From: an uncultured Gammaproteobacteria bacterium
GTDB lineage: Bacteria > Patescibacteriota > Microgenomatia > Levybacterales > UBA12049
DNA: 64,000 nt
Reading direction: 5' to 3'
Assembly: GCA_964610465.1 (NCBI GenBank)
Contig: CAZSWA010000003.1
Location: 6,245 to 70,244, forward strand
Position numbers and translations under genes: made by a program. Each line of letters opens with the position of its first letter. Position 1 is the first letter of the stretch. The notes below the pieces were generated by a model that was not told where the DNA came from, did no database searches, and saw only the letters and a program-made list of their open reading frames with translations. Shown in pieces: positions 8,317-43,375 of this stretch.

Positions 8317-8354
8317 TACAGCAAATAAAACATCGGTAATTAACTTAAAATAAT

Positions 8355-11294: not shown

Positions 11295-11333
11295 AGCGCA
11301 GGAAGAAATCGAATGGATGCTGATGTAAACAGA

Positions 11334-11834: not shown

Positions 11835-11879
11835 AAATTGTCATTTCTAGGAGCAATATTTGTTTTTTCGCTGTTACTT

Positions 11880-19451: not shown

Positions 19452-19903
19452 AAACTTTACCTAAATTTGATACATCAAAATTTACCATTACTCCTTATGT
19501 CAAACGGGTTGAAAAACCTTGGGGTTATGAGTTACATTGGGTACCGGAAGATGCTCCTTATATGGGTAAAGTCCTTCATATAAATGCAGGCAAAAGATTA
19601 TCTCTTCAAATTCATGACGCAAAATCTGAAAGCTGGTTTATGATGCATGGACGGGCAAAAGTATTGTGGGATAATGAGAAAGGAGAACTTATTGAAACAG
19701 AACTTCTCAACGGGCGAGGATATACAACACATGTAGGCCAACGTCATAGATTAATTGGAATTACAGATTGTGATATTCTTGAAGTATCAACTCCTGAAAA
19801 AGGCACCACATGGAGACTGGAAGATGACTATAAGAGACCTGATGAGACTGAGGAACTAAGAAAACAGCCCAATCGCGGTTGGGACAACGCTTCAAAAAAA
19901 TAA
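19448..19903 (+). CDS. cupin-type mannose-6-phosphate isomerase (type II PMI cupin domain)
   Basis: 'EKPWGYE', 'QIH', 'ESWFMMHG' cupin motifs. 4-nt overlap with the PMM gene. Confidence 0.6.
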   Translation: MKTLPKFDTSKFTITPYVKRVEKPWGYELHWVPEDAPYMGKVLHINAGKRLSLQIHDAKSESWFMMHGRAKVLWDNEKGELIETELLNGRGYTTHVGQRHRLIGITDCDILEVSTPEKGTTWRLEDDYKRPDETEELRKQPNRGWDNASKK

Positions 19904-19904
19904 C

Positions 19905-20957
19905 ATGTTAAATCTAAATGACATTGAACATCTGAATAAAATTGATCCCCAAAATACAAGAGCATCCAGTGATTTGATTGTCAAACAATGCAAAGCAGCA
20001 TGGGAACAAGTCAATAATCTTGAGATTAAAGAAGACAAGGAAAATATTACCAACATTGTTTTTTGTGGAATGGGGGCATCTATATATGGCGCACTTGTTC
20101 TTAAAGCTCTTATGGGACGCACGATGCCTTTACCTACTGAAATAGTAAGTGATTATTTTTTACCTGATTATGTAGATAACCACACATTGGTTGTCCTAAC
20201 AAGCTACTCAGGTACTACAGAAGAAGTACTTTCCTGTGCAAATGAAGCAAAAGAGAAAAATGCCAAGATGCTTGTTCTTACCAAAGGCGGACCGCTTGCA
20301 GAATTTGCAAAAACCAATAAAGTCCCAGCTTATATTTTTGACAAAAAACTCAATCCTGCTGGAGTACCACGATTGGGAAATGGATATACCATTTTGGGAC
20401 TTATTGGATTACTCAATAAAATAGGTATAATTGACTTGGAAGAGCATGAAATTACGAATGCGATTATTCGTCTTGAAGAAAAATTTGAAGAGATTAAAAA
20501 TCAAGCATTTAATGATTATACAATGTTTGAAAATAAAATCCCGATTGTCTTTACTGCTGAATATTTATCAGGCAACGGACAAATTCTAAGAAACCAGTTC
20601 AATGAAACAAGCAAAGCATTTTCTGCATATTATGTAATTCCTGATCTCAACCATCATTTAATGGAAGGACTCAAATTCCCAAAGAAATCCCCTCTTTATT
20701 TTCTTATCCTTAATTCTCCTAATTTTTCTCCAAAAATTAAGAAGAGAGTTGAGCTGACAATGGATGTAGTAAGACAAAATAAACACAAAATTTATGAATT
20801 TATGACTAGTGGACAAACCATATATGATGATTTTCTGGAAGCTCTTACCTATGGAAGCTTTCTTACCCTCTATCTTTCACTTTCCTACAACCAAAACCCT
20901 GCGATAAATCCTTGGGTAGATTATTTTAAAGAGAAATTAGCTCAAGGAGAGAAATAA
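19905..20957 (+). CDS. bifunctional phosphoglucose/phosphomannose isomerase (SIS domain, archaeal-type PGI/PMI)
   Basis: Two SIS-like halves ('FCGMGASIYGA', 'VLTSYSGTTEE'). Operon position immediately after PMM and cupin PMI. Confidence 0.6.
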   Translation: MLNLNDIEHLNKIDPQNTRASSDLIVKQCKAAWEQVNNLEIKEDKENITNIVFCGMGASIYGALVLKALMGRTMPLPTEIVSDYFLPDYVDNHTLVVLTSYSGTTEEVLSCANEAKEKNAKMLVLTKGGPLAEFAKTNKVPAYIFDKKLNPAGVPRLGNGYTILGLIGLLNKIGIIDLEEHEITNAIIRLEEKFEEIKNQAFNDYTMFENKIPIVFTAEYLSGNGQILRNQFNETSKAFSAYYVIPDLNHHLMEGLKFPKKSPLYFLILNSPNFSPKIKKRVELTMDVVRQNKHKIYEFMTSGQTIYDDFLEALTYGSFLTLYLSLSYNQNPAINPWVDYFKEKLAQGEK

Positions 20958-21371
20958 TTATTGTTTTGAAAGATATATTTTTATTTCCTTTATAAGGTCT
21001 GCTGGAGTTAATTGACTTTTGATAAGATATCCTGTTCCTAACGCAAGTGCTTCTTTTATTTCTACATCATCATTCAAATTAGTCAAAAACACTACGTTTT
21101 TATTTTTAATTGGCAGAAGTCCCTTATCGATGCTTTTTATCACATCGATACCGCTTAATTTTGGAAGTAAAATATCAAGAAGTATTAAATCCCAACCGCC
21201 TTGTTTGATTTTATCGAAGGCTTCTTCTCCATCAGTTGCACTATCTACATTATATCCTTCACCTTTGAGGGCCTCAAGATAAATATCACGCAGTAATTGA
21301 TCGTCTTCTACTACAAGTATTTTTGCTGAGTTCATTGATATAATCCTAGCATTATTATAATAAATAATCAA
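20958..21371 (-). CDS. stand-alone CheY-like response regulator receiver domain
   Basis: 'KILVVEDD', 'DLILLDILLP', conserved K. Probable true start at the internal 'MNSAKI'. Confidence 0.7.
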   Translation of the reverse strand: MIIYYNNARIISMNSAKILVVEDDQLLRDIYLEALKGEGYNVDSATDGEEAFDKIKQGGWDLILLDILLPKLSGIDVIKSIDKGLLPIKNKNVVFLTNLNDDVEIKEALALGTGYLIKSQLTPADLIKEIKIYLSKQ

Positions 21372-21415
21372 CCTAATTTCTAAGAATTTTTTCTGCTATA
21401 ATTATTATTATTTAA

Positions 21416-23446
21416 ATGGTGAATCAACTTCAAACTTATAAAAAAGTGTTTTATTCATGTATCCTTTTTCTGTTTTTCTCCTCTGTTTTTTTTCTTTATT
21501 TACATAATATTACACAAGATATATATAGTGGTGATATTGGAGATTTAGTAACTGCTTCCTATGTCTTTGGAGTACCTCATCCTCCTGGATATCCTCTCTT
21601 TACATTTTTGGGTTTTCTTTTTTCTCATATACCATTTTCTTTTCCTGTTGTATCACGCGTTGCTCTCATCTCATTCTTATCATCGTGGCTTGGTCTCATC
21701 GTTTTGTATAAATTTGCGAAGAAAGTAAGTAATGATATATTTATTTCTCTTCTTGCGACTTCCATTCTTGCATTTTCTTATCTCTATTGGCTACATGCTG
21801 AAGTACCAGAAGCATTTGGATTGAATAATTTTTTTGTAATAGCACTCTTCTATATATCTTATCTTTTTTATAAAGAAAAGAAAGTGTGGCAATTTTATCT
21901 CCTCTGTTTTTGTATGGGATTGTCTCTTACTCATCATCAAACTATTTTGTTTATTTTCCCGGGTTTGTTTTTGCTTCTTTTAAAAAACCTAAAATATGTT
22001 TTTAAGAAGAAAAAAAGGATATTGCTTGCTTTCCTTAGTTTTATTGTAGGATTTTTCCCTTATCTCTATGTTCTCATCGCTGCATCACATAATCCAATTA
22101 TTAACTGGGATAATGCTTATAATTTTCAAAATCTAATTCATTTAATATTAAGAAAAGATTATGGTTTTGCGCCAGCAATTGTAAATGAAGTGCCCTTTGC
22201 GGTCAAAATAATCCAGGTAAAAAGTTATTTTGAGTCGCTTATCATATTTTACTCATATCAAGTACTGTTCTTAGCACTACTTGGGGTTATCAAACTGATA
22301 AAAATTGATAGATTATTATTTGTCAGTCTTTTCATATCTTTCCTGTTTTCTGGACCTGCATATATATTTTATGGCGCAAATATTACTACAGAAGCTGCTG
22401 GTATGGGCATAATTGAACGGTTCTATCTAATATCAGCAATTATCCTCATGTTTTTCGTAATATACGGGCTTGTTTTTGTGAAAGAGTTGTTAAATCACAT
22501 ATTATCAAAAAAAATATATACTTTTATTTTATTATCTTATTTTCTTATTATTCCATTCTTTCTTGTAAAATATAATTTTGAAAAAACCAACCTTTCCCAA
22601 TCACATATTGGTAATAATTTAGCAATAGATATTTTGTCATCTCTCCCTAAAAATGCAGTTATATTCGTGTCAGGAGATACGACATCGTTTAATATTTGGT
22701 ATGTCCATTATGTATTAGGTTTCAGACCTGATGTAAATATTATTAACCCGCCAGGTGTTGGAGGAAATATTTATTTTGATAATCAAATTAACCGCTATCA
22801 CAAACTACATCCTTCAATAAAGCTTACAAACCTTGTTGCTCAAACACTTGAAGATATACGAAAAAGACATAGTGTGTATACTACATATGAAATCTCTTCT
22901 ATTCCCAAACATACAATTCTTCTTCCAAAAGGCTTAATATACGAAATGACATATGATAATGCTATGCCTACTAAACAAGAGTATATTAGAAGTGTTGAAC
23001 CTGTCCTTAATACAATACACCGAGTACGTAGTCAGACATTACTACCATATGATGATAACTTGATTGCTTCTGAAATACCTATGATTTATTCAAATGCATT
23101 AGTAAGAGTTGGAGATTTTTTATTTTCCTATTATCATGATTCAGCAACTCCTGAGCATTATTATAGAAGAGCATTATGGTTTGATGATAAAAATCCTGCT
23201 GCATACGCAGGACTTTCACTTAGCCAATATAAAGCCTACAATGATTGCCCAAACTCTATTGAGAACATGAATTCTGCAATCGATATTTATCCTATATGGA
23301 AAACGTACTATCTTCAACTTTATCTACTCTATAAGAGATGTAACACTTCTCAAAAGATCGTAAATAAGTATAAAGAAAGATACTATTCACTATTTAAAAT
23401 TTCTATAGATACTGACCTTACAAATAGTACAAAAAGAAAGATATAA
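21416..23446 (+). CDS. DUF2723 (TMEM260-like) GT-C membrane protein, putative protein O-mannosyltransferase, C-terminal TPR-like region
   Basis: 'SGDIGDLVTASYVFGVPHPPGYPLF' is the DUF2723 signature. About 11 TM helices. Confidence 0.6.
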   Translation: MVNQLQTYKKVFYSCILFLFFSSVFFLYLHNITQDIYSGDIGDLVTASYVFGVPHPPGYPLFTFLGFLFSHIPFSFPVVSRVALISFLSSWLGLIVLYKFAKKVSNDIFISLLATSILAFSYLYWLHAEVPEAFGLNNFFVIALFYISYLFYKEKKVWQFYLLCFCMGLSLTHHQTILFIFPGLFLLLLKNLKYVFKKKKRILLAFLSFIVGFFPYLYVLIAASHNPIINWDNAYNFQNLIHLILRKDYGFAPAIVNEVPFAVKIIQVKSYFESLIIFYSYQVLFLALLGVIKLIKIDRLLFVSLFISFLFSGPAYIFYGANITTEAAGMGIIERFYLISAIILMFFVIYGLVFVKELLNHILSKKIYTFILLSYFLIIPFFLVKYNFEKTNLSQSHIGNNLAIDILSSLPKNAVIFVSGDTTSFNIWYVHYVLGFRPDVNIINPPGVGGNIYFDNQINRYHKLHPSIKLTNLVAQTLEDIRKRHSVYTTYEISSIPKHTILLPKGLIYEMTYDNAMPTKQEYIRSVEPVLNTIHRVRSQTLLPYDDNLIASEIPMIYSNALVRVGDFLFSYYHDSATPEHYYRRALWFDDKNPAAYAGLSLSQYKAYNDCPNSIENMNSAIDIYPIWKTYYLQLYLLYKRCNTSQKIVNKYKERYYSLFKISIDTDLTNSTKRKI

Positions 23447-23454
23447 TTTTCTTC

Positions 23455-24600
23455 ATGAAACTTGTTTTTTTCACTTATAGCACACTTGAGTATGGAGGCG
23501 GTGTAGCAAGATATTTTATAGATATTGCTTCTCAACTCAAAAAACAACACCGTTCTTTAGATATTACAATTGTTACATTTCATGAATCGTTACTTAAAAA
23601 AATACTATTTGTCTACTCGATATATTTTACAAAAAAAATTGATACAGTCCTTTTTAAAGAGAGAGAAGAATTTGATGAAAAACTTAATAACATTCACTAT
23701 ATAAAAGTGAAAAAACTATCAGAACTTCATAAGTATCTTCAACAGGCAAATAGAATATATACAACAAATAATCTGCTAGAGTTATTAATCCTCAATACAC
23801 TTTCTTATAAATATCTTCTTCCCCAATTTATAATTGGTTTTCATATCCCTATGTATTATCCCATTAGTTCATCTTTCCAAAATAAAATTCATAATAGAAT
23901 ATATAAATCAGTTTTTTATTATAAACTATTATCGAAAGCTGAAAAGCTTCATGTAATAAACATTCATGATGAAAAAATTCTATTGACACATTTTCCTAAA
24001 AATAAAATCTATAAAATATACAATCCTTTTAATTCCCTAGAATTTAATACATTAAAAGAAAAGCTTTCTAAGAGTAGGAATCAGAAAATTAATATCCTCT
24101 GGATAGGACGATTGACAGAACAAAAGGGAGTTTCCGATTTACTTTCTCTTATAGTGAAAATTAACTCTTCCAAATATAAAAATAAACTAACTTGGAACAT
24201 TGTAGGTGAAGGTGAATTACGTTCTCAAATCATATTACTCCAAAAGGACTTTACTAATGTACGTTATTTAGGATATATATCTCATAATCAATTAGCAAGT
24301 ATTTATACAAAAAATGACATATTTATTTGTACAAGTCATTGGGAAAGTTTCCCTTATACACTTTTAGAAGCACAAAGTTTCAATTTACCTGTTATTTCCT
24401 ATAATATAGATGGGTGTAATGATATAATAGAGAACGGAATAAATGGCTATCTTGTAAATACGCTTACTGAATTTGAGAAAAGAATTTTAGAGTTTAGTAA
24501 AAATAATACCTTTAAGAATAAAGATATACGAGGTTACATTAAAAAAAAGTTTGAATATAAAGAGCAACTTAAAAGCTTATATAAGTTATTACACGATTAA
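23455..24600 (+). CDS. glycosyltransferase family 4 (GT-B, retaining)
   Basis: 'WIGRLTEQKG' and the 'ESFPYTLLEAQSFNLPVIS' EX7E-type motif. Confidence 0.75.
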   Translation: MKLVFFTYSTLEYGGGVARYFIDIASQLKKQHRSLDITIVTFHESLLKKILFVYSIYFTKKIDTVLFKEREEFDEKLNNIHYIKVKKLSELHKYLQQANRIYTTNNLLELLILNTLSYKYLLPQFIIGFHIPMYYPISSSFQNKIHNRIYKSVFYYKLLSKAEKLHVINIHDEKILLTHFPKNKIYKIYNPFNSLEFNTLKEKLSKSRNQKINILWIGRLTEQKGVSDLLSLIVKINSSKYKNKLTWNIVGEGELRSQIILLQKDFTNVRYLGYISHNQLASIYTKNDIFICTSHWESFPYTLLEAQSFNLPVISYNIDGCNDIIENGINGYLVNTLTEFEKRILEFSKNNTFKNKDIRGYIKKKFEYKEQLKSLYKLLHD

Positions 24601-24602
24601 CT

Positions 24603-25244
24603 ATGACAAACTATTATGATACTACTTATTTTAAATGGCAAAAAAAAGCAGGCGAATATGGCGCAAATCAAGATTTATGGATGTATAAAGATTATGTAAA
24701 ACCTTCTGATACTGTTCTGGATTTTGGTTGTGGCGGCGGCTACATGCTCAAAAAATTACATTGTAAAAATAAATACGGGATAGATATTAATCCAGTTGCA
24801 AGAAAGTTAGCAAAAGAAAAAGATATCCATGTATTTCAAAGTATTAAACAGCTTCCTAAAAATGTAAAATTTGATGTTATCATTTCTCACCATACCCTTG
24901 AGCATGTCACTGACCCCGCAAATATCTTAAAACAGTTGCGTATTCGTCTTAAGAAAAACGGTACTATTATATGTGTAGTTCCTATTGACGATTGGAGAAC
25001 TCAAAAAAAATATAATGCGGAAGATATAAATCAACATCTCTATACCTGGACTTCTCAACTTCTAGGAAATCTATTTGTAACTTGTGGATATAAAATCAAT
25101 AGCATTAATATACTTTCTTTCATGTGGCTTCCATTAAGCAGATATTATTATCGCTATATACCAAAACCTTTGTATTATTTTATGAGCAGGATTTGGAGTG
25201 AAGTTATATTATCCCGCCAGATTAGAATAGTTGCTCAAATATAA
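24603..25244 (+). CDS. class I SAM-dependent methyltransferase
   Basis: 'VLDFGCGGGYM' motif I. Confidence 0.7.
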   Translation: MTNYYDTTYFKWQKKAGEYGANQDLWMYKDYVKPSDTVLDFGCGGGYMLKKLHCKNKYGIDINPVARKLAKEKDIHVFQSIKQLPKNVKFDVIISHHTLEHVTDPANILKQLRIRLKKNGTIICVVPIDDWRTQKKYNAEDINQHLYTWTSQLLGNLFVTCGYKINSINILSFMWLPLSRYYYRYIPKPLYYFMSRIWSEVILSRQIRIVAQI

Positions 25245-25253
25245 AACTACGAC

Positions 25254-25961
25254 ATGCTAAAACTAAGATTGTTTTTTCATCCTCACTTTGTAATCAAATA
25301 TTATCTTTATAAGGATTTGAAAGCTATTACTAGCAACTATTCATTCAAGGGAAGAATCTTGGATATTGGATGCGGGAATAAACCGTATCAAGACTTATTT
25401 AAACCCGCTATTTATAAAGGAATTGATTTTAAAAAATTTTCAAGTAATTCAGAATTTAGTATCAATAAGCCTGACTATTACTTTCGCGCTCCCTATCTCT
25501 CAACTTTTAAATTACCATTTGTTTCCACTTATTTTGATTCAGTTGTTTCTTTTCAGGTACTTGAACATCATCCAGAAGTAGTTACTTTTATACGCGAAGC
25601 AGTAAGAGTAACAAAAAAGCACGGATTAATCATTATAAGCTTCCCTTTTATTTGGGGATTGCATGAAGAACCAAATGATTATCAACGACTTACTCATTAT
25701 AGTATCATTAGACAATTCAAAAAAAATAAATGTAAGATGATTAAAATAAAGACTCAAGGCTCTATTGCTTCAACAAATATGATGCTTCTCATGGATTATC
25801 TAATTGAACTATCTCATAAAGGGAAAATACATTATATTATTGCTTTATTGCTATACCCATTCTTTTTAGTTGCAAGTTATTTCTCTTTGGCAGTTGATAC
25901 GATATGCAAGTCAAATAAAGTATTTTTGAATTACATAGTAGTAGCACAAAAACTCGAGTAA
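25254..25961 (+). CDS. class I SAM-dependent methyltransferase with C-terminal TM helix
   Basis: 'ILDIGCGNKPY' motif I; hydrophobic tail. Confidence 0.65.
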   Translation: MLKLRLFFHPHFVIKYYLYKDLKAITSNYSFKGRILDIGCGNKPYQDLFKPAIYKGIDFKKFSSNSEFSINKPDYYFRAPYLSTFKLPFVSTYFDSVVSFQVLEHHPEVVTFIREAVRVTKKHGLIIISFPFIWGLHEEPNDYQRLTHYSIIRQFKKNKCKMIKIKTQGSIASTNMMLLMDYLIELSHKGKIHYIIALLLYPFFLVASYFSLAVDTICKSNKVFLNYIVVAQKLE

Positions 25962-25985
25962 TAAAGCTGGCTGATACTACAAGTA

Positions 25986-26990
25986 TTAAACCATTTCTTC
26001 CGCAAAAGTATAGGCCTCTTGAAGTGGAAATTGCTTAATATAATTTATTCGTATTTTCCCTTTTGTATTTATCTTACCGGGTATTGAAAAAAATTCATGT
26101 AATAATCCGGCTGCGTATGAAAAATGAATTAGTGGAAATAATAATGGCATACATAAAACCAAAATTATTTTTTTATATTTGATAGCTGCCTTTACTGAAG
26201 TCGCTATTCCCAATACCAAATACAAAAAGAGGGGTGTTAAATACCAAAAAGGATGAATAATAATAAGACTAAAAATATAAAGGATAAATGCAATCGGGCT
26301 CATCAAGAGAAAATCTTGAGGAATAAATTCTTTTTTTATTTGCTTCATCCGACCGCTTCCATAATGACTAAATTGCTTAATGAGTTGATACACAGTACCC
26401 CTATGATAACGATAGATAAACATACTCTGGTTGTACTCTAATTCATAACCTTTTGTCTTAAGTCTTCGGAGGAGCTCTGTTTCTTCATTTGGCACGATTG
26501 TTTCATCAAATCCTCCCACTTTTAGTACTGCAGTCTTTCGTAATGCAAGATTTGCTCCAATAAGCTGGTATTCATTGGCTTTTGTGACTTTTGTTTTTTG
26601 CCTGCTATAGCGAAAACGCATTCTCATGGCACCAAAATAAGTTTCAAGAGTATAGCCAATAAGTTGGCTCACAAAATTGCCGTCCTTGTAGCTAAAAAGG
26701 CTTGGGCCGCCAACAGCCGCAATATTGGGATTGGTAAAGGCTTTAGCGATAAGTTTAAACGCCTTTGGATTGACTTGTGAATCGTTATCTAAAAGGTAGA
26801 GTATCTTTCCTTTTGAATTTTTTATACCGATATTTCGCTGCTTGGCGATATGTCGTCCTTCTATAATAAGAATCTCAATGAGCTGTTTTGGATAATCTAC
26901 TCTTCGTAAAGACTCTAAAACTACTTGTGGATTGGTATCAGGAAGAATAGGAATATTTACAGATATTCTGGGCAAGTAACTTTTCTGCAC
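25986..26990 (-). CDS. glycosyltransferase family 2 (GT-A) with C-terminal TM helices, same strand and immediately downstream of pilin genes
   Basis: 'ISVNIPILPDTN', 'LLDNDS' DxD. C-terminal hydrophobic segments. Confidence 0.7.
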   Translation of the reverse strand: MQKSYLPRISVNIPILPDTNPQVVLESLRRVDYPKQLIEILIIEGRHIAKQRNIGIKNSKGKILYLLDNDSQVNPKAFKLIAKAFTNPNIAAVGGPSLFSYKDGNFVSQLIGYTLETYFGAMRMRFRYSRQKTKVTKANEYQLIGANLALRKTAVLKVGGFDETIVPNEETELLRRLKTKGYELEYNQSMFIYRYHRGTVYQLIKQFSHYGSGRMKQIKKEFIPQDFLLMSPIAFILYIFSLIIIHPFWYLTPLFLYLVLGIATSVKAAIKYKKIILVLCMPLLFPLIHFSYAAGLLHEFFSIPGKINTKGKIRINYIKQFPLQEAYTFAEEMV

Positions 26991-27051: not shown

Positions 27052-27540
27052 CTATCGAGTAACGTTGATCGTAGAACCCAATTCTGCAGCTGGAGCTGAA
27101 ACGGTAAGTCTGTTACTCCCACCTGCACCTGTAATGGCTTGAATGGTATATCCTGTTGTCCATGTGGTACCAGTACATCCTGATGATTGAACAGGTTGTG
27201 CTCCACCCGCTGTTAACGGGTCAACTGGAAGTGCTGCAATATACTGGGGAACTACTGCAGTACAGAATGTATTAAACGCAGTTGCAGCAATAGTTTGGGC
27301 TGTGGTGGTAATCCCTGGAGGCAACGTGCCTTTGTTGTCTGCCATATATTGATTGGTAGCATTCAGGATTGCATTGACATCTGCGCTTCTTTTAGTATTG
27401 TTTGATTGAGAAAACTGTCGCGCCGGGTTAATAGCAATAAGAGTGATTGCGAGTAAGATTGCAAGGATTCCGATGACAACCAAAAGCTCGATAAGAGTAA
27501 ACCCTTTTCCCTGTCTTTTGATAAGCAGTTGTTTATTCAT
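27052..27540 (-). CDS. type IV major pilin (prepilin leader MNKQLLIKRQGKG | FTLIELLVV, Glu5), copy 1
   Basis: Canonical class III signal peptide. Thr/Gly-rich C-terminal region. Confidence 0.85.
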   Translation of the reverse strand: MNKQLLIKRQGKGFTLIELLVVIGILAILLAITLIAINPARQFSQSNNTKRSADVNAILNATNQYMADNKGTLPPGITTTAQTIAATAFNTFCTAVVPQYIAALPVDPLTAGGAQPVQSSGCTGTTWTTGYTIQAITGAGGSNRLTVSAPAAELGSTINVTR

Positions 27541-28212
27541 AATCTATATTAAGATTTACATAAACTCTACCGTTTGTCAAGATATCAGTTTTGTATCTTA
27601 CAGATTTCATACCAGCCACTTGATTTCTTTATATAGTACAAAAAAAAGAATATTCTTGTTTAATTCTGTTTTAAGTTTTATCTTGTTACTGTAATCGTAG
27701 AACCCAATTCTGCAGCTGGAGCTGAAACGGTAAGTCTGTTACTCCCTGCAATTTGTTGAATCATATATCCTGTTGTCCATGTGGTACCAGTACATCCTGA
27801 TGATTGAACAGGTTGTGCTCCACCCGCTGTTAACGGGTCAACTGGAAGTGCTGCAATATACTGGGGAACTACTGCAGTACAGAATGTATTAAACGCAGTT
27901 GCAGCAATAGTTTGGGCTGTGGTGGTAATCCCTGGAGGCAACGTGCCTTTGTTGTCTGCCATATATTGATTGGTAGCATTCAGGATTGCATTGACATCTG
28001 CGCTTCTTTTAGTATTGTTTGATTGAGAAAACTGTCGCGCCGGGTTAATAGCAATAAGAGTGATTGCGAGTAAGATTGCAAGGATTCCGATGACAACCAA
28101 AAGCTCGATAAGAGTAAACCCTTTTCCCTGTCTTTTGATAAGCAGTTGTTTATTCATAATCTATATTAAGATTTACATAAACTCTACCGTTTGTCAAGAT
28201 ATCAGTTTTGCG
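27068..28212. repeat. tandem direct duplication (about 520-530 bp unit, period about 620 bp) containing a pilin gene plus its 55-bp upstream region
   Basis: 27068-27595 and 27692-28212 are near-identical. They differ only near the pilin 3' end (a 9-nt indel plus substitutions). Confidence 0.9.
27678..28157 (-). CDS. type IV major pilin, copy 2 (identical to copy 1 over about the first 130 residues)
   Basis: Same leader and core as copy 1. The C-terminus reads 'YMIQQIAGSNRLTVS...TITVTR' versus 'YTIQAITGAGGSNRLTVS...TINVTR'. Confidence 0.85.
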   Translation of the reverse strand: MNKQLLIKRQGKGFTLIELLVVIGILAILLAITLIAINPARQFSQSNNTKRSADVNAILNATNQYMADNKGTLPPGITTTAQTIAATAFNTFCTAVVPQYIAALPVDPLTAGGAQPVQSSGCTGTTWTTGYMIQQIAGSNRLTVSAPAAELGSTITVTR

Positions 28213-28246: not shown

Positions 28247-29482
28247 TTATAAATTGAGTTTGACAAGAAGAATATCAACTCTATAACCTGTTACACTTGT
28301 ATCTTCATGTACAATAGTATCTGTAGTAAATTTACCTATTATTGAGAGTATTTCATCCCGTATATCCTGAGGAACTTTTTTAGAAAAATTTATTACCGTT
28401 TTTAAAGATGTAGTGGAAGACGAATCTTGTACTGTTACTTTTTTATATCCACTCTGTGTTAAACTCTCTTTGAGTATATTTACTTGTTTTGCCGTGTTGC
28501 TCGTATTGATAATTGTAACTGTTAGAGATTTTTCCTTAAGCAAGGCTGAACTACTTGATATAAGAGCAGCTGAAGAACTTGCTTCAGGCGTAACAATAGG
28601 TGGAAGTAGTGTTGGAGATGACACTACCACAGACGGTGTAGTAACAGCAGGTTTTGAAGGTGACTGATTGGATATAATATAGACTGCAATAAGAACCCCG
28701 ATAAGAATGACAAAAATTCCAAGAAGAATAAAAACGCGTAAATTACCGGAGGATTTTTTCGCAGCAGGAGGAGATAGAGATATTGTGTCAGTATTTGCGG
28801 CTTGTTCTGCCTGGGCCTGGATTTCGATATTGGTTTTTGAGGCAAGAAGATTTTCCTGTTTAAAACTGTCAAGTTTTTTAAAAACCATATTTGCTGTCTC
28901 TTTATTTAAATCACTTGTTAATTTTATTTTGGGTTCATAAAGAAATGCCGGAATTACCAAATCTATATGAAAGTCATATTTTTCAAAAACTGATTTAATC
29001 GCTTGATAAAAATTACTATTGGCAGCAAGTACTCTTATTCCGTTTTGTATAGGATATCTCTTACTTATAATATCTTCAAAAGGTACCGCATCAAGATAAT
29101 TTTTAATTGATGTTTCTAAGTCTTCCTGAGGAGCTGTTGGGGAGGCCGATTGATTTGCAGAAGTCCCAGTAGTTTGTGCAGATTTTTGTGGTTTTTTATT
29201 GGCCTGGTCTTTTGCGGAAGATTTAGAAAATTCTTTTATAAAAAGCGTGTCATTGGAAAGTATGATAGCCAAATTACGTGAAGTAATTTTGTTGGTATCC
29301 AAAAATTGCTTTATCCTGGTATCAAGAATTTCTTTATTGATAATATCAGTGTGCAGTATTGCATCCGTTTCAAATGTAAATTGATAAACAGATGGCAAGT
29401 CCGGAGCGTACAGATTTAATTTATCTCTTTGTAAATAAAGTATTCCTGATTGACCTTTTGTCATTAGTAAATTACCCTCCAT
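28247..29482 (-). CDS. pilus-operon membrane protein: cytoplasmic N-domain, single TM, S/T/P-rich linker, C-terminal LytR_C-like domain (PilM/PilN-like candidate)
   Basis: Domain layout is read from the sequence. Overlaps the upstream minor pilin gene. Confidence 0.4.
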   Translation of the reverse strand: MEGNLLMTKGQSGILYLQRDKLNLYAPDLPSVYQFTFETDAILHTDIINKEILDTRIKQFLDTNKITSRNLAIILSNDTLFIKEFSKSSAKDQANKKPQKSAQTTGTSANQSASPTAPQEDLETSIKNYLDAVPFEDIISKRYPIQNGIRVLAANSNFYQAIKSVFEKYDFHIDLVIPAFLYEPKIKLTSDLNKETANMVFKKLDSFKQENLLASKTNIEIQAQAEQAANTDTISLSPPAAKKSSGNLRVFILLGIFVILIGVLIAVYIISNQSPSKPAVTTPSVVVSSPTLLPPIVTPEASSSAALISSSSALLKEKSLTVTIINTSNTAKQVNILKESLTQSGYKKVTVQDSSSTTSLKTVINFSKKVPQDIRDEILSIIGKFTTDTIVHEDTSVTGYRVDILLVKLNL

Positions 29483-29880
29483 GTTTGTATTGATAGTACA
29501 TTATTCACCCAATTCACTGTTGCTTGTACCTTTCTTACAAAATTTCCTTCCTGACCTTGCGATAGTATGATATAAGGATTTCCTCCACTTACCTGCACAG
29601 TCGCTGATGGAGTCGCAATCGATCCAGATGGACTTCCTACATATAATGTTTCACCTTTATAAGTAGGATCCCTCAACAATCTTAGTATAGCATTTTCTAC
29701 ACCACTTTCTGCAACCATATATGCAATTTCACCTTCCTGAATTTTTGTACTGGAGTTTGTGTTTAAAACTATAATAATTACACTCGCAGAAATAATCGTT
29801 ACTGCAACCACTACGAAAAGTAAAAGCGTAATTAATGCTTGCCCTTTTTGTAATTTTTTTATCTGTAAGTTTTTTTTCAT
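29464..29880 (-). CDS. PilX-like minor pilin (prepilin-like N-terminus without Glu5)
   Basis: 'KLQKGQALITLLLFVVVAVTII' is a PilX_N-type helix. Confidence 0.55.
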   Translation of the reverse strand: MKKNLQIKKLQKGQALITLLLFVVVAVTIISASVIIIVLNTNSSTKIQEGEIAYMVAESGVENAILRLLRDPTYKGETLYVGSPSGSIATPSATVQVSGGNPYIILSQGQEGNFVRKVQATVNWVNNVLSIQTWRVIY

Positions 29881-30398
29881 TGTAAACCAACTGTTGTACT
29901 AAAATTCCGTGTTTCAGGTTTTCCTGTAGTACGACTAGTTTTGCTAGTGACAGTAAATGTGATTTTAACTGTATCAGTATTGCTTCCTCCATTGCCTATT
30001 CGTAAGAAATTGAGATTTGATACTGTAGTGTCATAGCTATTTAAATTATCTGTGCCATTTGCATCTGTAATCTGGAAATTACCATTACCGTCAGTTGCAT
30101 AGGTATAGTTTATCGCGTTGGAAGTAATTTGCAATGTAGCACCTTGCTGACCAGGACTTGCAGGGACATTGATAGTATCCGCTGAATTTATATCATATAG
30201 AAGTCTTGATAGAATAAATTTCCCGTCCTGTTCAACATCTGATGAAGATTGAGATTCAAGTCCCACATCTAAAACAGTAGAAAAAATACTTGAAAGGCTT
30301 GCAATAAGCAAGGTCAATACTCCCATATAGATAAGTAACTCAATAAGAGTATATCCTTTCGCATAAGATTGTTTTCTATATTTTGCAAAAATTTTCAT
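29877..30398 (-). CDS. minor (pseudo)pilin with prepilin cleavage/methylation motif
   Basis: 'KGYTLIELLIYMGVLTLL'. Confidence 0.7.
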   Translation of the reverse strand: MKIFAKYRKQSYAKGYTLIELLIYMGVLTLLIASLSSIFSTVLDVGLESQSSSDVEQDGKFILSRLLYDINSADTINVPASPGQQGATLQITSNAINYTYATDGNGNFQITDANGTDNLNSYDTTVSNLNFLRIGNGGSNTDTVKITFTVTSKTSRTTGKPETRNFSTTVGLQ

Positions 30399-32434
30399 GG
30401 TGAATGATTTACACTAACATCATAAAGTACAGGCGTGAGATTTGAATCATTGGTCGTAAAATATGCTTTATATCGCATACACCATCCAGGATTGGTATAA
30501 CTTGGATTGTAATTACCAAAAGGTATTGCAGCAGAAATCGATGCAGCAACAGGAGTAAAGTAGGAAGCAGGATTTCCATTTGGTCCTACATAAGTATATG
30601 TCGCATTATTGCAATTACCGTTTACTGCCTGGGATGCAGCAACCTGTATCTGAATTGTAGTATTGGAAGGTTGATTGATGGTGGCAACTAATCTATTGAA
30701 TGTCATCTGGTGAGTTGGAGGTTGAGTAAGCGCAAAATTTCTGGATTCAAATGTTCCGCTGCTTGAATAGGTACCTCCTGACCCTCCTTCAACTATTTGC
30801 ACTTCTGCGCTTGCATTATCAGTAAGTATATACGAAAAATGATCACCATCTGTTTCTATTACAGGAGAGATTGCATAAATAGTATTTACACCAGGAATTG
30901 TAATTCCGCCGCATCGGACTGGCACACTGGCATTACTTACGTCAATTACCTGATAGACCTGACCACTTGAACCGCCGATTGCTACTCTATTTCCTGGAAT
31001 TGCAACTACTGCTTTTGGACTCATATTTTGTACTGTAGTATAATTTCCGACAATTGTATTGTTAGAAAGATCAATAATAAAAAGGTCAGGCTCTGTTGAT
31101 AAATAATTGGTAACTACATAGGCATACGTTGCAGCCTGGGAAACATACACATCATTTGCTCCGAGACTATTCCCAAGATTAATATCAGCAATATCTGTAA
31201 GACGAGTTGGATCTAAGGCGTTGATAATTTGCAACTGTTTGGTGGTACTTGATGTTGCGATATACACAGTAGTTCCTACGACAAAGACTTTGTTACCAGT
31301 TCCTGCCAAATTAAATACACCAAGTTGTGTTTGGCTGCTTGAACCTTGTATTGATTTTAGATCAAATGTGTAAAGCTTACTTCCAATTGTGACATACCCT
31401 ACATTGCCGCCATAGGAAGTATTATTGGCCACATATACACTGGTTCCTGTGCCACCTGGATCAAAATATCCTGCTTTTGTAAAATTTGGCGGATTTTGTA
31501 TATTAAGAATATCTACTGACGGACCTGGATTAGCTGCTGCAAGATATGCATATTGTGAATCAGCATAAAGTCCATAGGTTTTTATATTTTCTGTAGTATA
31601 AGACCCGTTATAGGAAATTACAGGAGGACTGGGATTAGGCGGGTCACTCACTACTGCGCTCTCCATAGGATTACCGGAAGAATTACCTCCTGTAGTTGAA
31701 TAAATCGTATTTTTATTTGCACCAACAAAGGTAGTAATAGCAGTAGCGATAGCGGAGCCTGGTAAATTATATGTTAAAGATGCGGTAGGTGTAGCGGGTT
31801 GACACCAATCACCATGTCCACCTGCACCAAGCTGTACCTGTCCATCATTAGGCGTTCCACTCGGAATAGTATTTACTACTGCCACTCCTGACAAAACATT
31901 TCCTGCATTAAAATCAGTAGTAGTTGTATCAGTGTCTGAAATATTATCCTGATGGGTAAGATATAAGGTAGAAGTAATAGAACTTGCATACGGCTGTGTC
32001 CATGAAATAGTAATAGCTATTTGTTTGGTTGAAGGATCAAGCGTCCCTGCAGGAGAAGCGACAATTGCGCCGGTTGATGCTCTATTTACATCACTAATAT
32101 CTATTCTTTGTGTCAAGCCATTTATAGTCTGTGTACCTGATACTAACATCCAGGCATTCCCGGAAGTTGTGGCATAGTATGTCCCATCAGTTGTGATGGC
32201 ATTCCAGTTATTATTGCGTATGCTTTTGATTGCTTCTTCACTTTCTTTAAGAAATTGTATTGCCTGGATTCGTTGTAATTCTTGTGGTTTTCCGCTGCGT
32301 GAAGCCACAACTCCTGTAAGAATCGCTGGGAATATGATTGCCGCAAGACCAATAGCAAGCAACACTTCTACAAGTGTTTGTCCCTTTTCCAAAAAGTTCT
32401 TATACTTTGTGTTAATTAACTTGAGTAATTGCAC
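30395..32434 (-). CDS. giant pseudopilin (679 aa), putative pilus tip or adhesin subunit
   Basis: 'EKGQTLVEVLLAIGLAAIIF' is a prepilin-type N-terminus with Glu5. The long Ser/Thr/Gly/Asn-rich extracellular region reads as beta-rich. Confidence 0.55.
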   Translation of the reverse strand: MQLLKLINTKYKNFLEKGQTLVEVLLAIGLAAIIFPAILTGVVASRSGKPQELQRIQAIQFLKESEEAIKSIRNNNWNAITTDGTYYATTSGNAWMLVSGTQTINGLTQRIDISDVNRASTGAIVASPAGTLDPSTKQIAITISWTQPYASSITSTLYLTHQDNISDTDTTTTDFNAGNVLSGVAVVNTIPSGTPNDGQVQLGAGGHGDWCQPATPTASLTYNLPGSAIATAITTFVGANKNTIYSTTGGNSSGNPMESAVVSDPPNPSPPVISYNGSYTTENIKTYGLYADSQYAYLAAANPGPSVDILNIQNPPNFTKAGYFDPGGTGTSVYVANNTSYGGNVGYVTIGSKLYTFDLKSIQGSSSQTQLGVFNLAGTGNKVFVVGTTVYIATSSTTKQLQIINALDPTRLTDIADINLGNSLGANDVYVSQAATYAYVVTNYLSTEPDLFIIDLSNNTIVGNYTTVQNMSPKAVVAIPGNRVAIGGSSGQVYQVIDVSNASVPVRCGGITIPGVNTIYAISPVIETDGDHFSYILTDNASAEVQIVEGGSGGTYSSSGTFESRNFALTQPPTHQMTFNRLVATINQPSNTTIQIQVAASQAVNGNCNNATYTYVGPNGNPASYFTPVAASISAAIPFGNYNPSYTNPGWCMRYKAYFTTNDSNLTPVLYDVSVNHSP

Positions 32435-32909
32435 CTCTTCTGTTTATTGTTATAGTTTTTTGAACATTCGATTGCGTATCTTTAAGAATAACTGTGTTTG
32501 ATCCAACACTAAATCCTATGATTTCACCGCTTCCACTGGCAAAAATAACTGAAGAGTTAGGAAATGTAATACCAGTAAATTGCAATGTATCTGGCAAAGA
32601 AGCCGAAAAATTTGTCGTATCTGAAGATGAGTAACTTGCTCCATGAAACAGCACATAACTATTGGCACTAAAGTAGATTCCATAGCTATCCATTACTCCC
32701 CGGCCTTCTGTATCCCCTGTCATCGCTTTGATTTGCTGGTTTTTGATATCTGCAATAAGTGAATTAATCGTGGTAGATAGAGAACTATTGTGTTTAAATT
32801 CCAAAAGATTTACGGTAATAAGTAGGGCAAGCAAAGAAAAAATTGTCATCACGAGAAGCAATTCGATAAGTGTAAACCCTTGAAATTTCTGCTGAAAAGG
32901 ATATTTCAT
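32412..32909 (-). CDS. minor (pseudo)pilin with prepilin cleavage/methylation motif
   Basis: 'QGFTLIELLLVMTIFSLLALL'. Confidence 0.7.
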   Translation of the reverse strand: MKYPFQQKFQGFTLIELLLVMTIFSLLALLITVNLLEFKHNSSLSTTINSLIADIKNQQIKAMTGDTEGRGVMDSYGIYFSANSYVLFHGASYSSSDTTNFSASLPDTLQFTGITFPNSSVIFASGSGEIIGFSVGSNTVILKDTQSNVQKTITINRRGAITQVN

Positions 32910-33962
32910 TCATCGTCCTCCTACTTGACCAATCATACTGTAAATAGGAGCAATAATAGACATCATCATACCGCCAACCATAACTCCGACAAATACCAAC
33001 ATAAGAGGTTCCATTAATGCAGTTACTGTTTTTAATGAGTTTGATACTTGGTAATCCAGATATTCAGATGCATCAAGCATCGATTTATCAAGTGATCCGC
33101 TTCGTTCTCCTGCCTCTGTGATTTTTATGACAATACTTGGGATAACATTTTTTGAATATTTAAGACTCTCTGAAAGTTTTTTCCCATCAGCAACCGTATT
33201 CTTTGCATGCTTAATTGCTTTCTGAATATCTTTCTTAACTACTACTTCTTCTGTAAGTTCAAGCGCAGTAATAATCGGGATCCCCGCATTAAGAAGTAAA
33301 TATAAACTTCTCGTAAACCGGGTAAGATCTATATCCTTGGCAAGTTGCGAAACTACAGGTAACGAAATTAGGATGTATATAAACAACCTTTTGTTTTTCC
33401 TGTAGAGAAAAGCAATAATAGCTCCAATAACTCCAACCCCTATGATTACTTCAAGCGTATGAGTAAGCAATAAACTCGACAGAAATATCATGATTTTTGT
33501 AGGTAATGGAAGTGTTACATTTAAACGCGAGAAAACTGTTGAGATTTTCGGAACCACCACTACGAGAATAACTAGCATTACTGCGATAAATACAAAAAGA
33601 ATAAATACCGGATAGATAAGAGCTGATTTTATCTTATCTGCAAATTCCTGTTCTTTACGAATATTCACTTTAATGTCATTGAGGGTAACATCAAGCGTTC
33701 CTGCTTCTTCTGATGCTTTGATGATATTTATTGTTACCTTATCAAATACTCCTGGAAATTTTGAAAAGCTATAATATACATGTTGTCCTTGAGTTAAATC
33801 TTCTTTTAGTGTAGTAAGTATCTTTTTCATATTACCCTTTGAATCATCAAGAAGCGAATTTACTGTCTCAAGAATGGGAATTCCTGAGGTCAACATCGTA
33901 TGCATATTACTAACAAGAGTAATTTTATCATTTCCTGATAATGAAATATTTTGAGTTTTCAT
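32910..33962 (-). CDS. pilC: type IV pilus inner-membrane platform protein PilC / GspF family
   Basis: Two GspF-like repeats and three TM segments. Operon position next to pilB. Confidence 0.75.
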   Translation of the reverse strand: MKTQNISLSGNDKITLVSNMHTMLTSGIPILETVNSLLDDSKGNMKKILTTLKEDLTQGQHVYYSFSKFPGVFDKVTINIIKASEEAGTLDVTLNDIKVNIRKEQEFADKIKSALIYPVFILFVFIAVMLVILVVVVPKISTVFSRLNVTLPLPTKIMIFLSSLLLTHTLEVIIGVGVIGAIIAFLYRKNKRLFIYILISLPVVSQLAKDIDLTRFTRSLYLLLNAGIPIITALELTEEVVVKKDIQKAIKHAKNTVADGKKLSESLKYSKNVIPSIVIKITEAGERSGSLDKSMLDASEYLDYQVSNSLKTVTALMEPLMLVFVGVMVGGMMMSIIAPIYSMIGQVGGR

Positions 33963-35644
33963 AACGCTTCCACCTTTGTAACTCTTAATACTTCTTCTAT
34001 TGTTGTCACACCTTTGACGACCTTGTCCAATCCATCCTCAAGCATGGTAGTCATACCTTCTGTAACTGCTTGTTTCAAAATTACGTCTGCGTCATTTTTG
34101 GCTGTGATGAGTTTTCGTATTTCATTACTGACTTCAAGCACTTCAAATACCCCAAGCCTTCCTGAATAACCGGTAAAATGACATACGTCACAACCTTTGC
34201 CGCTATAAATTGTTGCTTCTTTTGCATTGCCAAAATATTTTTTAATTAAGTCTTTTGATAGGTTTTTTGAAAGGTCATCATATGGAACAAGGAGTGAACT
34301 TTTGCACATCTCACATATTTTCCTCACAAGTCTTTGGGCAACGATGACATTAACAGTTGATGCAACGAGAAATGGTTCAACTTTCATATCTGACAAACGG
34401 GGCAAAGCAGTTGCAGCGTCATTGGTATGTAGAGTAGAAACTACTAAATGGCCTGTAAGTGCTGCATTTACTGCAATACCTGCTGTTTCAATATCGCGGA
34501 TTTCTCCCACAAAAATTATATTTGGATCCTGTCGCAAAATAGAACGAAGCCCACTGGCAAAGGTGAGCTCTGTTTTAGCATTGGTCTGAATTTGATTGAC
34601 ACCCTTCATTCTATATTCAACCGGATCTTCAATCGTCGTGATATTTTTATCTCTGGTGTTTAAGATTTTGAGAACTGCGTAGATAGAGGTCGTCTTTCCA
34701 CTACCCGTTGGGCCAGTTGAAAGAATCATTCCGTAGGATTTCGCGTATGCTTTTTCAACTTTTGCTAAATCTTTTTCATTCATTCCTAAATCAACTAGTG
34801 AGAATTGCCTGAATTTGGAAGCAAGAAGTCTTAATACTATCTTCTCACCATGAACAATGGGCACTATTGAGACACGGATATCTAAATCTTCTTCATCTAA
34901 ATGGATTTTCATCTTTCCATCCTGTGGTGCCATATGCTCATCAGTTCTCAAGTTAGATAGCACTTTGATTCTTGAGGTAACCTGCTCATGCAGATTTTTG
35001 GGTAAAAATAATACATCATGCAAAATACCATCGACGCGAAAGCGTACAAGGGAATCTTTTTCCTCAGGCTCAATATGCACATCTGATGCTCTATCCTGAT
35101 AGGCATAATTTACAATCAAATCAACTATCTTGGCAATTGGCGCTTCTAATGATTCAACTTTCCCTGCATTGCCCAGCTCATTTCGTATCAATGCATCAAA
35201 AGTTTTTTGCAAGTCTTTTCTATATATCCAAAGCTTATTGAAAATATCTCTTTCTGTTGCCAGGTATGCAGTTATTTTTTCTTTGGTTTTTTGAGCGACA
35301 AGTTCGGTAATTAGCGTATTCCCTGGATCGACCATTGCGACTTTCAATCCATCATTGTCGCGGGCAAAAGGAATTACTTTGTATTTTCTGGCTATTCTTT
35401 CCGGGATTACTTTAAATATTTCCTCAGGAATGGAAATTTTAGCAAGAACAATATAGGGAACTTTAAGGTAATCAGCAATTACGATACCTAACTTTTCATC
35501 AGTTATGATGTCTTTTTCAATTAACGCATCTTGAAATGTGATGTTGGCATTTTTGGCATAATCGAGTACTTCCTGTAACTTTGCTTCATCAGTAAGTTTG
35601 AGACCCGTGATTAACGTTTTTAGTTGTTCGTCTGTAACACCCAT
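33959..35644 (-). CDS. pilB: type IV pilus assembly ATPase PilB / GspE family
   Basis: Walker A 'GPTGSGKTT', 'IFVGEIRD', and a tetracysteine 'C..C...C..C'-like region near the C-terminus. Confidence 0.85.
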   Translation of the reverse strand: MGVTDEQLKTLITGLKLTDEAKLQEVLDYAKNANITFQDALIEKDIITDEKLGIVIADYLKVPYIVLAKISIPEEIFKVIPERIARKYKVIPFARDNDGLKVAMVDPGNTLITELVAQKTKEKITAYLATERDIFNKLWIYRKDLQKTFDALIRNELGNAGKVESLEAPIAKIVDLIVNYAYQDRASDVHIEPEEKDSLVRFRVDGILHDVLFLPKNLHEQVTSRIKVLSNLRTDEHMAPQDGKMKIHLDEEDLDIRVSIVPIVHGEKIVLRLLASKFRQFSLVDLGMNEKDLAKVEKAYAKSYGMILSTGPTGSGKTTSIYAVLKILNTRDKNITTIEDPVEYRMKGVNQIQTNAKTELTFASGLRSILRQDPNIIFVGEIRDIETAGIAVNAALTGHLVVSTLHTNDAATALPRLSDMKVEPFLVASTVNVIVAQRLVRKICEMCKSSLLVPYDDLSKNLSKDLIKKYFGNAKEATIYSGKGCDVCHFTGYSGRLGVFEVLEVSNEIRKLITAKNDADVILKQAVTEGMTTMLEDGLDKVVKGVTTIEEVLRVTKVEAL

Positions 35645-35650
35645 GGGCAG

Positions 35651-36028
35651 TTATTGTAAATAATTGTCTTTATTTAAATTTTGCACTTTTTTCCATAATT
35701 TTTCAAAATCAAAAAAGCTTTTGTTGATATAGTCCCGTGCTCCCAGTTTTTTGGCTTTTTCTACATCTGATTGCTGACCAAGTGTAGAGAACACAAGAAC
35801 TGGTATCTTCTTCAATTCCGTACTTTCTGACAAATCTTTCAACACTCCAAAGCCGTCTTTTTTGGGCATAATAAGATCCAGAAGTATTACATCAGGTTTT
35901 ACTTCTTTAATCTTGGCTATGCCTTCTTCTCCATCGGCTGCCTCATACACTTCTACTTTTTGTTCCTTAAATTTCGATGCGTAAAACTGTCTGAAAAATT
36001 TATCGTCCTCTACTAATACTATACGCAT
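35651..36028 (-). CDS. CheY-like response regulator receiver (stand-alone)
   Basis: 'RIVLVEDD', 'DVILLDLIMP', 'KLGARDYI'. Confidence 0.75.
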   Translation of the reverse strand: MRIVLVEDDKFFRQFYASKFKEQKVEVYEAADGEEGIAKIKEVKPDVILLDLIMPKKDGFGVLKDLSESTELKKIPVLVFSTLGQQSDVEKAKKLGARDYINKSFFDFEKLWKKVQNLNKDNYLQ

Positions 36029-36041
36029 ATATGAAAATGAA

Positions 36042-43244: not shown

Positions 43245-43267
43245 ATTTAGAATAAAATGTGTACTAG

Positions 43268-43295
43268 AAATTTATACGATATTTCGTATAAATTT
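43268..43295. promoter_or_regulatory. perfect 12-4-12 palindrome AAATTTATACGA-TATT-TCGTATAAATTT overlapping the spacer and -10 of the lexA promoter; candidate LexA operator
   Basis: Seen directly in sequence. Lies 24 nt upstream of the lexA start and about 80 nt upstream of uvrB. The minus-strand -35 TTGACA is at 43295-43300. Confidence 0.6.
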
Positions 43296-43375
43296 GTCAA
43301 TAATGCTAATTGATACAAAAGATATCAATAAAAGAATTTTGTGCTACAATACGAATGACAAAAGAGAATATTCGC

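Follow-up and report, generated by a model that had tools for sequence, protein, structure and literature searches.

How can two neighbouring pilin genes be identical over almost their whole length, including the DNA in front of them, and still end in different codons? This question was raised by a 64,000-nucleotide (nt) stretch of contig CAZSWA010000003.1 (NCBI GenBank assembly GCA_964610465.1, positions 6,245 to 70,244 of the forward strand), referred to below as the window, in which two genes for type IV prepilins, copy A and copy B, were arranged in tandem. The host was a Microgenomates-like bacterium belonging to the candidate phyla radiation (CPR). The products of copy B (P0001) and copy A (P0121) were both found on one 80,202-bp NCBI contig, which was the sole public contig with them. 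Our analysis indicated that the two genes were probably tandem paralogs of older origin, recently made alike by gene conversion.

According to the sequence, the open reading frame (ORF) list, the repeat finder and the pairwise DNA alignment, both copies were complete ORFs on the minus strand. Copy B (27678-28157; ORF list and PF07963) encoded a prepilin of 159 amino acids and was transcribed first, being promoter-proximal to the operon, while copy A (27052-27540; ORF list, PF07963 and TIGR02532) encoded a prepilin of 162 amino acids. At the N-terminus, MNKQLLIKRQGKG preceded FTLIELL in copy B, and MNKQLLIKRQGKG followed by FTLIELLVVIGILAILLAI after the cleavage site was common to both copies. 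The cleavage and methylation motif, KG before FTLIELLVVIGILAILLAI, had Gly at -1, Phe at +1 and Glu at +5 followed by a hydrophobic helix in both products. The window pilins matched PF07963 (N_methyl) with 34.2 bits at a cutoff of 21.2, and the NCBIfam model TIGR02532 was matched with 30 bits at a cutoff of 16.3. Among the ORFs of the window that were scanned, none was recognised as PilD. The mature proteins were 146 and 149 amino acids long and contained 42-44% of Gly, Ala, Ser and Thr (GAST); 38-47% has been quoted for major pilins (PMC11623550). A database search returned more than 6000 homologs, and the named ones were assigned to Microgenomates, Roizmanbacteria or the Patescibacteria group. 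Judging from their size, position, composition, own upstream element, multiple copies and this number of homologs, A and B probably represent the major type IV pilin.

An AlphaFold2 model of copy A, built from a 23-sequence alignment, reached a mean pLDDT (predicted local distance difference test) of 78 and had the pilin lollipop topology, with a helix at residues 16-68 and strands at 82-85, 128-137, 143-148 and 155-160. Since the model had no significant counterpart in a Foldseek search of the PDB (the best one was Thermus PilA4, 6xxd, E=0.59), the fold class rested on the topology of this model.

Overall, A and B were 96% identical, and their differences were limited to a hairpin and the C-terminus. 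Reading along the minus strand, a perfectly identical tract of 447 nt (27147-27593 in A, 27764-28210 in B) began 53 nt ahead of the ATG and extended over codons 1-131 to the first base of codon 132. It was followed by a variable hairpin patch that occupied 26 nt in A (27121-27146, codons 132-140) and positions 27747-27763 in B (codons 132-137), where its length was typical of the family. A second identical block of 53 nt came next (27068-27120 in A, 27694-27746 in B), corresponding to A codons 141-157 plus 2 nt. The last 16 nt (27052-27067 in A, 27678-27693 in B) formed a divergent 3' end with 7 differing positions. Thus, the differences along the alignment amounted to 0/447 nt, 6 substitutions and a 9-nt indel in 26 nt, 0/53 and 7/16, and all 13 substitutions fell within the last 86 of 480 aligned coding sites.

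In the model, the patch was located at the end of strand 128-137 and in the turn preceding strand 143-148. The hairpin read YTIQAITGAGGSNR in copy A and YMIQQIAGSNR in copy B. Three codons were replaced between A and B, namely ACC/ATG (T132M), GCC/CAA (A135Q) and ACA/GCA (T137A), which gave the six substitutions, and copy A carried three extra codons (GGT GCA GGT; G-A-G) as the 9-nt indel. Six of these nine extra bases belonged to a perfect 6-nt tandem duplication, CAGGTGCAGGTG, within the A patch (A-CAGGTG-CAGGTG-GG). The three unchanged codons of the patch had no synonymous difference. At the 3' end, copy A finished with ATC AAC GTT ACT CGA TAG (INVTR) and copy B with ATT ACA GTA ACA AGA TAA (ITVTR). 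All four conserved sense codons there had changed synonymously, the remaining one gave N159T, and the stop codon was TAG in A and TAA in B. As a side effect of N159T, an N-V-T sequon was present in copy A only (27064-27066, codon 159); Asn was found at this position in 13 of 120 relatives.

A unique 84-nt spacer (27594-27677, minus strand) separated the two genes; it ran from the B stop codon to the upstream element that A shares with B. When this spacer and both outer flanks were compared by blastn-short, only chance matches of 7-8 nt were returned, and the spacer had no counterpart upstream of B or downstream of A. The original prediction, made from the letters of the window alone, had proposed tandem, complete prepilin genes that agree in leader and core, and the two full-length ORFs with their 447-nt perfect identity bore this out. 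Other parts of it needed revision. The suggested repeat of about 620 bp with 55 bp of upstream sequence did share the full gene and its upstream region, but the upstream part was 53 nt, and the similarity comprised about 535-544 nt per copy plus the 84-nt spacer rather than a contiguous 620-bp unit. Divergence was indeed confined to the C-terminal side, where the last 30 or so codons had been said to differ, but it consisted of two short patches and not of the whole stretch. The announced 9-nt indel was present, in the hairpin patch, together with 13 substitutions over both patches.

The mosaic had two features that argue for gene conversion. First, no differences over 447 nt followed by clustered changes (analytic P of about 2e-10) made it incompatible with uniform mutation; an identical run as long as the observed one was reached in 0 of 200,000 permutations. 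Second, four synonymous changes and a new stop codon within 16 nt, against 500 nt left untouched, suggest that one gene keeps the 3' end of an older paralog.

Comparison with the pilin family gave additional information about the patch. The hairpin of copy A was the longest of 120 family members, with the invariant Y131 and R144 enclosing 12 residues; the length had its mode at 9-10 in the alignment of 120 homologs, and copy B had 9. The G-A insertion of copy A was unique among these homologs, and its A135 stood where Q occurred in 103 of them. By these comparisons copy A is the derived version, with an extra Gly-Ala due to a 6-nt slippage duplication and an Ala instead of a nearly invariant Gln. 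Only two columns of the mature protein varied more than position 159. In ten pilin clusters (at least 90% identity), the polymorphism density was 1.1-1.4 per position at residues 69-131 and 1.0-1.3 at residues 132-162, and positions 132 and 159 were polymorphic in 3 and 4 of the ten clusters, respectively. We therefore rejected the idea that the tail was the sole freely varying part of the pilin, given that the polymorphism within clusters was equally dense in both segments. Because close relatives varied across residues 69-162, the complete lack of A/B differences at residues 69-131 would be a footprint of homogenisation rather than of constraint. The places where A and B differ mainly indicate how far homogenisation reached. 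Only the hairpin patch hinted at selection, which is plausible at this site but unproven.

A different history could be considered, in which the promoter and the gene were duplicated in tandem very recently and the hairpin and last codons of one copy then changed rapidly, either adaptively or under relaxed constraint. All three changed patch codons were non-synonymous, with no synonymous change among the unchanged ones, and the derived features of A (the unique two-residue insertion by slippage and the loss of the conserved Q) would also fit such a scenario. Moreover, the copy number of relatives ranged from 1 to 3, hence duplications do happen. However, a simple tandem duplication does not fit since neither the spacer nor the flanks were duplicated. 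The four synonymous changes and the altered stop codon in the last 16 nt, against none in 500 nt, could not be point mutation after duplication, and two of the three replaced patch codons needed 2 and 3 neighbouring substitutions although 500 nt had not changed at all. Thus, we consider a fresh duplication unlikely.

If the mosaic did arise by gene conversion, as we consider most likely, the following course of events would account for it. Copies A and B would be two functional, separately promoted pilin genes at the distal end of the pilus operon. In one recent non-reciprocal homologous recombination, one gene would have been copied over the other from position -53 to codon 157, which would have erased their differences. 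The last five codons, left outside the converted tract, would keep the old and mostly synonymous divergence and mark the 3' limit of the tract. Since helix alpha-1 and nearly all of the globular domain were identical, shared processing and filament fit would be expected, so that the same prepilin peptidase should process A and B and the same filament should accept both. In addition, the 447-nt direct repeats may act as substrates for unequal crossing-over, and for this reason the number of copies (1-3 in relatives) would be expected to fluctuate.

The 26-nt patch, which forms a beta-hairpin in the model (residues 132-140), would then be a hole in the converted tract that either stayed different or became different later. 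It could have been spared if there were two separate events, if restoration or mismatch repair took place at the 9-nt heterology, or if convertants were selected against. Alternatively, the hairpin could have diverged after conversion under selection, in which case the cells might profit from two hairpin versions. The data favoured neither the spared old patch nor the later change. Import of the patch from a foreign allele was judged unlikely, as the tract would be at most 26 nt long with all unchanged codons identical.

The same type of locus was found in related genomes, where the pilus operon and a neighbouring glycosylation cluster were conserved in seven other loci. There was one pilin gene in L088 and in L090/L091, two in L084 and L092, and three in L081, L083 and L085. 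The DNA identity between copies within a genome was 70-100% and always above that between genomes (57-73%), with independent duplications possible for the older pairs. In L081, copies 1 and 2 (8001-8477 and 10877-11353) matched at 100% along about 570 nt, a stretch that took in about 58 nt upstream of the genes and 33 nt downstream, and their flanks were unrelated. They were separated by 2.4 kb with two small ORFs and a gene for a PMT_2-like protein of 486 amino acids. The third L081 copy (11512-11988) had 80% identity, and the first 71 nt of copies 2 and 3 were identical despite an overall divergence of 21% (0 of 200,000 permutations reached this). Copies 1 and 3 of L083 (6863-7339 and 8028-8504) had about 35 differences, mostly synonymous and affecting one residue, and shared a perfect block of 130 nt. 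The L092 pair (1591-2076 and 3400-3897) differed at about 17% of sites (about 80 positions) but at only 4 mature residues. In these L083 and L092 pairs, very strong purifying selection has preserved two genes for nearly the same pilin, which suggests a need for dosage or co-assembly. The copies of L084 and of L085 were about 70-77% identical. Finally, the P0158/P0162 pair on a contig of 109,798 bp had identical mature sequences and different leaders, so its tract had the opposite position to that of the window pair. Paralog pairs of all ages together with mosaic tracts in relatives point to homogenisation with shifting boundaries, combined with strong purifying selection, as a habit of the whole lineage.

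A further example came from a degenerate search of metagenome contigs for the peptide CTGTTWTTGY. Two contig ends from one metagenome, L086 (1-190) and L087 (1400-1589, minus strand), belonged to a relative with about 80% identity and shared their first 99 nt before diverging. The break came right after Gly-Tyr 130-131, at the same codon as in the window pair. The two tails were YTVQLISGANRVTVAAPAAELGATISVTR, followed by a GT2 (glycosyltransferase family 2) gene, and YTVQLDPAGNNRVTVAAPGAELGTTITVTR, in a different context; they differed in the same hairpin and at position 159. This junction was a branch of the de Bruijn graph inside a pilin gene. It demonstrated that an identical core combined with a different hairpin and a different residue 159 occurs more than once, and that such repeats break short-read assemblies. 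When both window pilins and P0001 were looked up by exact sequence in the contig index, there was no match, and a second sample of the species was likewise not found. A contig scan with the generic motif GFTLIELLV yielded, among the matches listed, only distant pilins (at most 56% identity), many of them from unrelated phyla.

Several points weighed against gene conversion as the full explanation of the window pair. The copy number was not ancestral everywhere, as two syntenic relatives had a single pilin, so that concerted evolution need not account for every paralog pair of the lineage and some may have arisen by independent duplication. The L092 pair and L083 copies 1 and 3 kept near-identical proteins despite many synonymous differences, which means that purifying selection alone can keep paralogs alike and that conversion was not the only force. 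If the patch were an old island, the identity of its three unchanged codons would have a probability of roughly 0.06-0.2 by our estimate. Additionally, the phasing and the copy number rested on the assembled sequence.

The last point leads to the possibility that the pair was an assembly artefact. Namely, the alleles of two co-existing strains, or a collapsed or expanded repeat, could have been threaded into a tandem pair with a wrong copy number or a wrong pairing of tails. The perfect 447-nt repeat exceeded the length of short reads, the equivalent repeat in the other metagenome had split the assembly into two contigs sharing exactly 99 nt, and the window proteins were present on one public contig only. 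The warning in the original prediction that such a locus is prone to assembly collapse was thus reasonable, as the broken L086/L087 repeat illustrated. However, the unique 84-nt spacer joined a pilin stop codon to a pilin upstream element, which requires a molecule with at least two tandem copies. The hairpin of B, its 3' end with the stop codon and the spacer were located within about 100 nt and were therefore linked in single reads. Moreover, relatives on contigs of 36-751 kb carried 2-3 tandem copies with similar spacers. An artefact is therefore improbable, about as much as a fresh duplication.

The original prediction had offered two readings of the divergent ends, gene conversion with selection on the C-terminus or a substrate for recombination-mediated pilin variation. 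The first one was retained in part: conversion explained the data better than a fresh duplication or uniform mutation, but the selection was unproven and the variation within clusters was even over residues 69-162. As for the second one, programmed variation would mean that recombination between the copies, or with unseen cassettes, switches the exposed hairpin in the style of Neisseria pilE/pilS or of the Moraxella inversion. The variable segments were bracketed by identical sequence able to guide recombination, and the same hairpin and position 159 differed between the paired tails of the second species. In cultivated CPR bacteria, attachment to the host is mediated by pili (PMC11623550, PMC9894109), which means that varying them could be relevant. 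But searches of the 64-kb window by blastn-short and tblastn found neither a further pilin copy or fragment nor a cassette that was truncated or lacked a promoter, and the sole matches were to N-terminal motifs of minor pilins; neither strand of the window had a G-quadruplex (G4) motif (G3+N1-7 x4); no long inverted repeat was present at 25-31 kb; and no recombinase domain was found by Pfam in the neighbouring ORFs. With two complete, direct copies that shared an upstream element, no recombinase or invertase gene nearby, and two variants of very little diversity, a switching system is less probable still, and a variation system of the Neisseria type with silent cassettes was not supported.

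The most novel element that could be proposed for gene conversion at this locus is an array of 1-3 major pilin copies in Microgenomates-type CPR bacteria that is constantly re-homogenised. In such an array, recombination and purifying selection would maintain assembly compatibility, and an exposed patch (hairpin 132-142 plus residue 159) would be actively held different. We regard this extended version as speculative and, taken as a whole, rather unlikely. If it were true, the pili of a cell might be mixed or come in alternative forms, giving two surface specificities that would serve host attachment or phage evasion, and crossing-over between the copies might produce hybrids.

The window pair can be compared with several known systems. 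Neisseria has one expressed pilin gene, many promoterless silent cassettes truncated at the 5' end, a G4-forming initiator and very high switching rates. The window pair resembles this system in that non-reciprocal recombination between pilin copies is proposed and that a conserved 5' part and core frame short, variable, surface-exposed segments near the C-terminus. It differs in that both genes are complete and each has an upstream element of its own, that cassettes and a G4 motif are absent from the 64 kb, and that the net effect is homogenisation instead of diversification. In the Moraxella tfpQ/tfpI system with Piv, segments are inverted by an invertase, whereas the window copies were direct and the neighbouring ORFs had no recombinase domain. 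Closer parallels for the homogenisation can be found outside of pilins. The tufA and tufB genes of Salmonella reportedly evolve in concert by RecA-dependent gene conversion. The tandem cluster of lpl lipoprotein paralogs of Staphylococcus aureus is another example of concerted evolution (PMC2568036). In these cases, as here, the copies within one genome resemble each other more than they resemble orthologs (in the pilin loci, independent duplication may be behind this for the older pairs), the edges of identity tracts are sharp, and the exchanged segment may differ in extent from the ORF. The difference is that they involve a translation factor or lipoproteins, while here a secreted filament subunit is concerned, of which a small exposed loop is not homogenised. 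A review covers the antigenic variation of pilin that arises from gene conversion between pilE and pilS in Neisseria gonorrhoeae and N. meningitidis (PMC4534519).

Among tandem pilin genes, pilA1 and pilA2 of Legionella pneumophila are about 72% identical, with differences spread over their whole length, and only PilA2 is found in pili (PMC13170364). In contrast, the window pair was 96% identical, with the differences in the hairpin and the C-terminus and with clear recombination boundaries. In TM7x, which belongs to the CPR Saccharibacteria, the pili T4P-1 and T4P-2 serve host attachment, and each locus is described with one major pilin (PMC11623550, PMC9894109). The window locus was similar to these in having PilB, PilC, several minor pilins including a very large one, and a small GAST-rich major pilin. 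However, it came from another CPR class, and near-identical tandem copies and their homogenisation are not described there; the text of the paper that was checked had no instance of 'tandem' or 'duplicat'. The Pam pili of CPR bacteria, reported in a preprint, were set aside as irrelevant because they are a different pilus type based on donor-strand exchange.

Given these precedents, the tandem pilin genes and the probable gene conversion between them, here in a poorly studied lineage, are fairly ordinary behaviour of a gene family. At the same time, no other host-attachment organelle of CPR/Patescibacteria episymbionts is as well supported as the type IV pilus, and outside Saccharibacteria its pilins have hardly been studied. 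The locus would provide a clean and datable case in which pilin paralogs of an uncultivated lineage underwent gene conversion, and the related genomes trace the dynamics of pilin copy number (1-3) and homogenisation. Such loci are also assembly traps that produce contig breaks and a copy number that is possibly under-called, and clustering of proteins at 90% identity hides these paralogs. Metaproteomics could recognise the copy in use from its C-terminal tryptic peptide, LTVSAPAAELGSTINVTR or LTVSAPAAELGSTITVTR.

The region upstream of the two genes had a conserved organisation. An element of the form TTGACA-N23-TAATAY-AGA(G)AT, which can also be written as TTGACA-N17-(TG)N6-TAATAY-AGA(G)AT, preceded almost every pilin copy in five genomes. 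In the window it was located at 27541-27593 and 28158-28210 (minus strand), and it was also found upstream of the pilins in L081, L083, L084 and L085, ending 0-20 nt before the ATG. Comparison of the upstream sequences gave 27575-27580 (copy A; 34 nt upstream of its ATG) and 28192-28197 (copy B) as the positions of the TTGACA box. This element is a putative promoter. The distance of 23 nt between TTGACA and TAATAY was too long for a standard sigma-70 promoter, and no Shine-Dalgarno sequence was visible; should TAATAY serve as the -10 box, the mRNA would have almost no leader. A scan for consensus sigma-70 promoters and terminators called nothing on the gene strand. Folding of the two downstream regions gave no structure better than that of shuffled sequences, and the spacer had no convincing terminator.

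The rest of the type IV pilus operon, as annotated by Pfam and NCBIfam, extended from 28247 to 36440 on the same strand, upstream of the pilin pair. It started with genes for an Hpt protein (36042-36440) and a response regulator (35651-36028), continued with the PilB ATPase (33959-35644; T2SSE, 1.6e-127) and PilC (32910-33962; T2SSF, 1e-49), and then included four pilin-like genes (32412-32909, 30395-32434, 29877-30398 and 29464-29880) and a gene for a membrane protein of 411 amino acids (28247-29482). The pilin pair thus formed the distal end of the operon. The gene order was kept in L081, L083, L084 and L088. The product of the second pilin-like gene, 679 amino acids long, had a pilin-like N-terminal hydrophobic segment and no Pfam match, and it may be the counterpart of PilX2, the large beta-propeller minor pilin of Saccharibacteria (PMC11623550). 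Its L084 counterpart of 654 amino acids had a weak LVIVD (beta-propeller) match. The 411-amino-acid protein was assigned to no family and had only a sub-threshold match to LytR_C. Its position between the minor pilins and the pilin pair was conserved in L081, L084 and L088 (367-384 amino acids), and it sat where alignment proteins of the PilM/N/O type would be expected.

Downstream of the pilins, a cluster for glycosylation and sugar activation was encoded on the opposite strand (18063-26990; Pfam). Counting from the pilins, it contained genes for a GT2 enzyme, two S-adenosylmethionine (SAM) methyltransferases, a GT1 enzyme, a TMEM260/PMT-like GT-C protein (676 amino acids), a small ORF, PGI, an ORF of the size of mannose-6-phosphate isomerase, and PGM/PMM. 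The cluster adjoined the pilins in every syntenic relative examined, namely in L081/L082 (12013-16477), L083 (8590-14143), L088 (5484-10465) and L090 (1412-3391). The pilins were very rich in Thr and Ser, and the cluster is a candidate system for their O-glycosylation, possibly by mannosylation. In L082, a response-regulator gene lay at the position of the small ORF, and in L081 an extra PMT_2 gene was located between pilin copies.

With respect to the homologous recombination machinery (RecA) on which conversion would depend, only LexA and UvrB were seen in the window. Elsewhere in the window, the genes noted were ordinary chromosomal context. They encoded a LexA-like repressor, UvrB and a DNA polymerase of the PolX/PHP type at 42615-45376 and 52331-54118, as well as tRNA-Gly(CCC) at 50842-50914 and tRNA-Asp(GTC) at 52184-52258.

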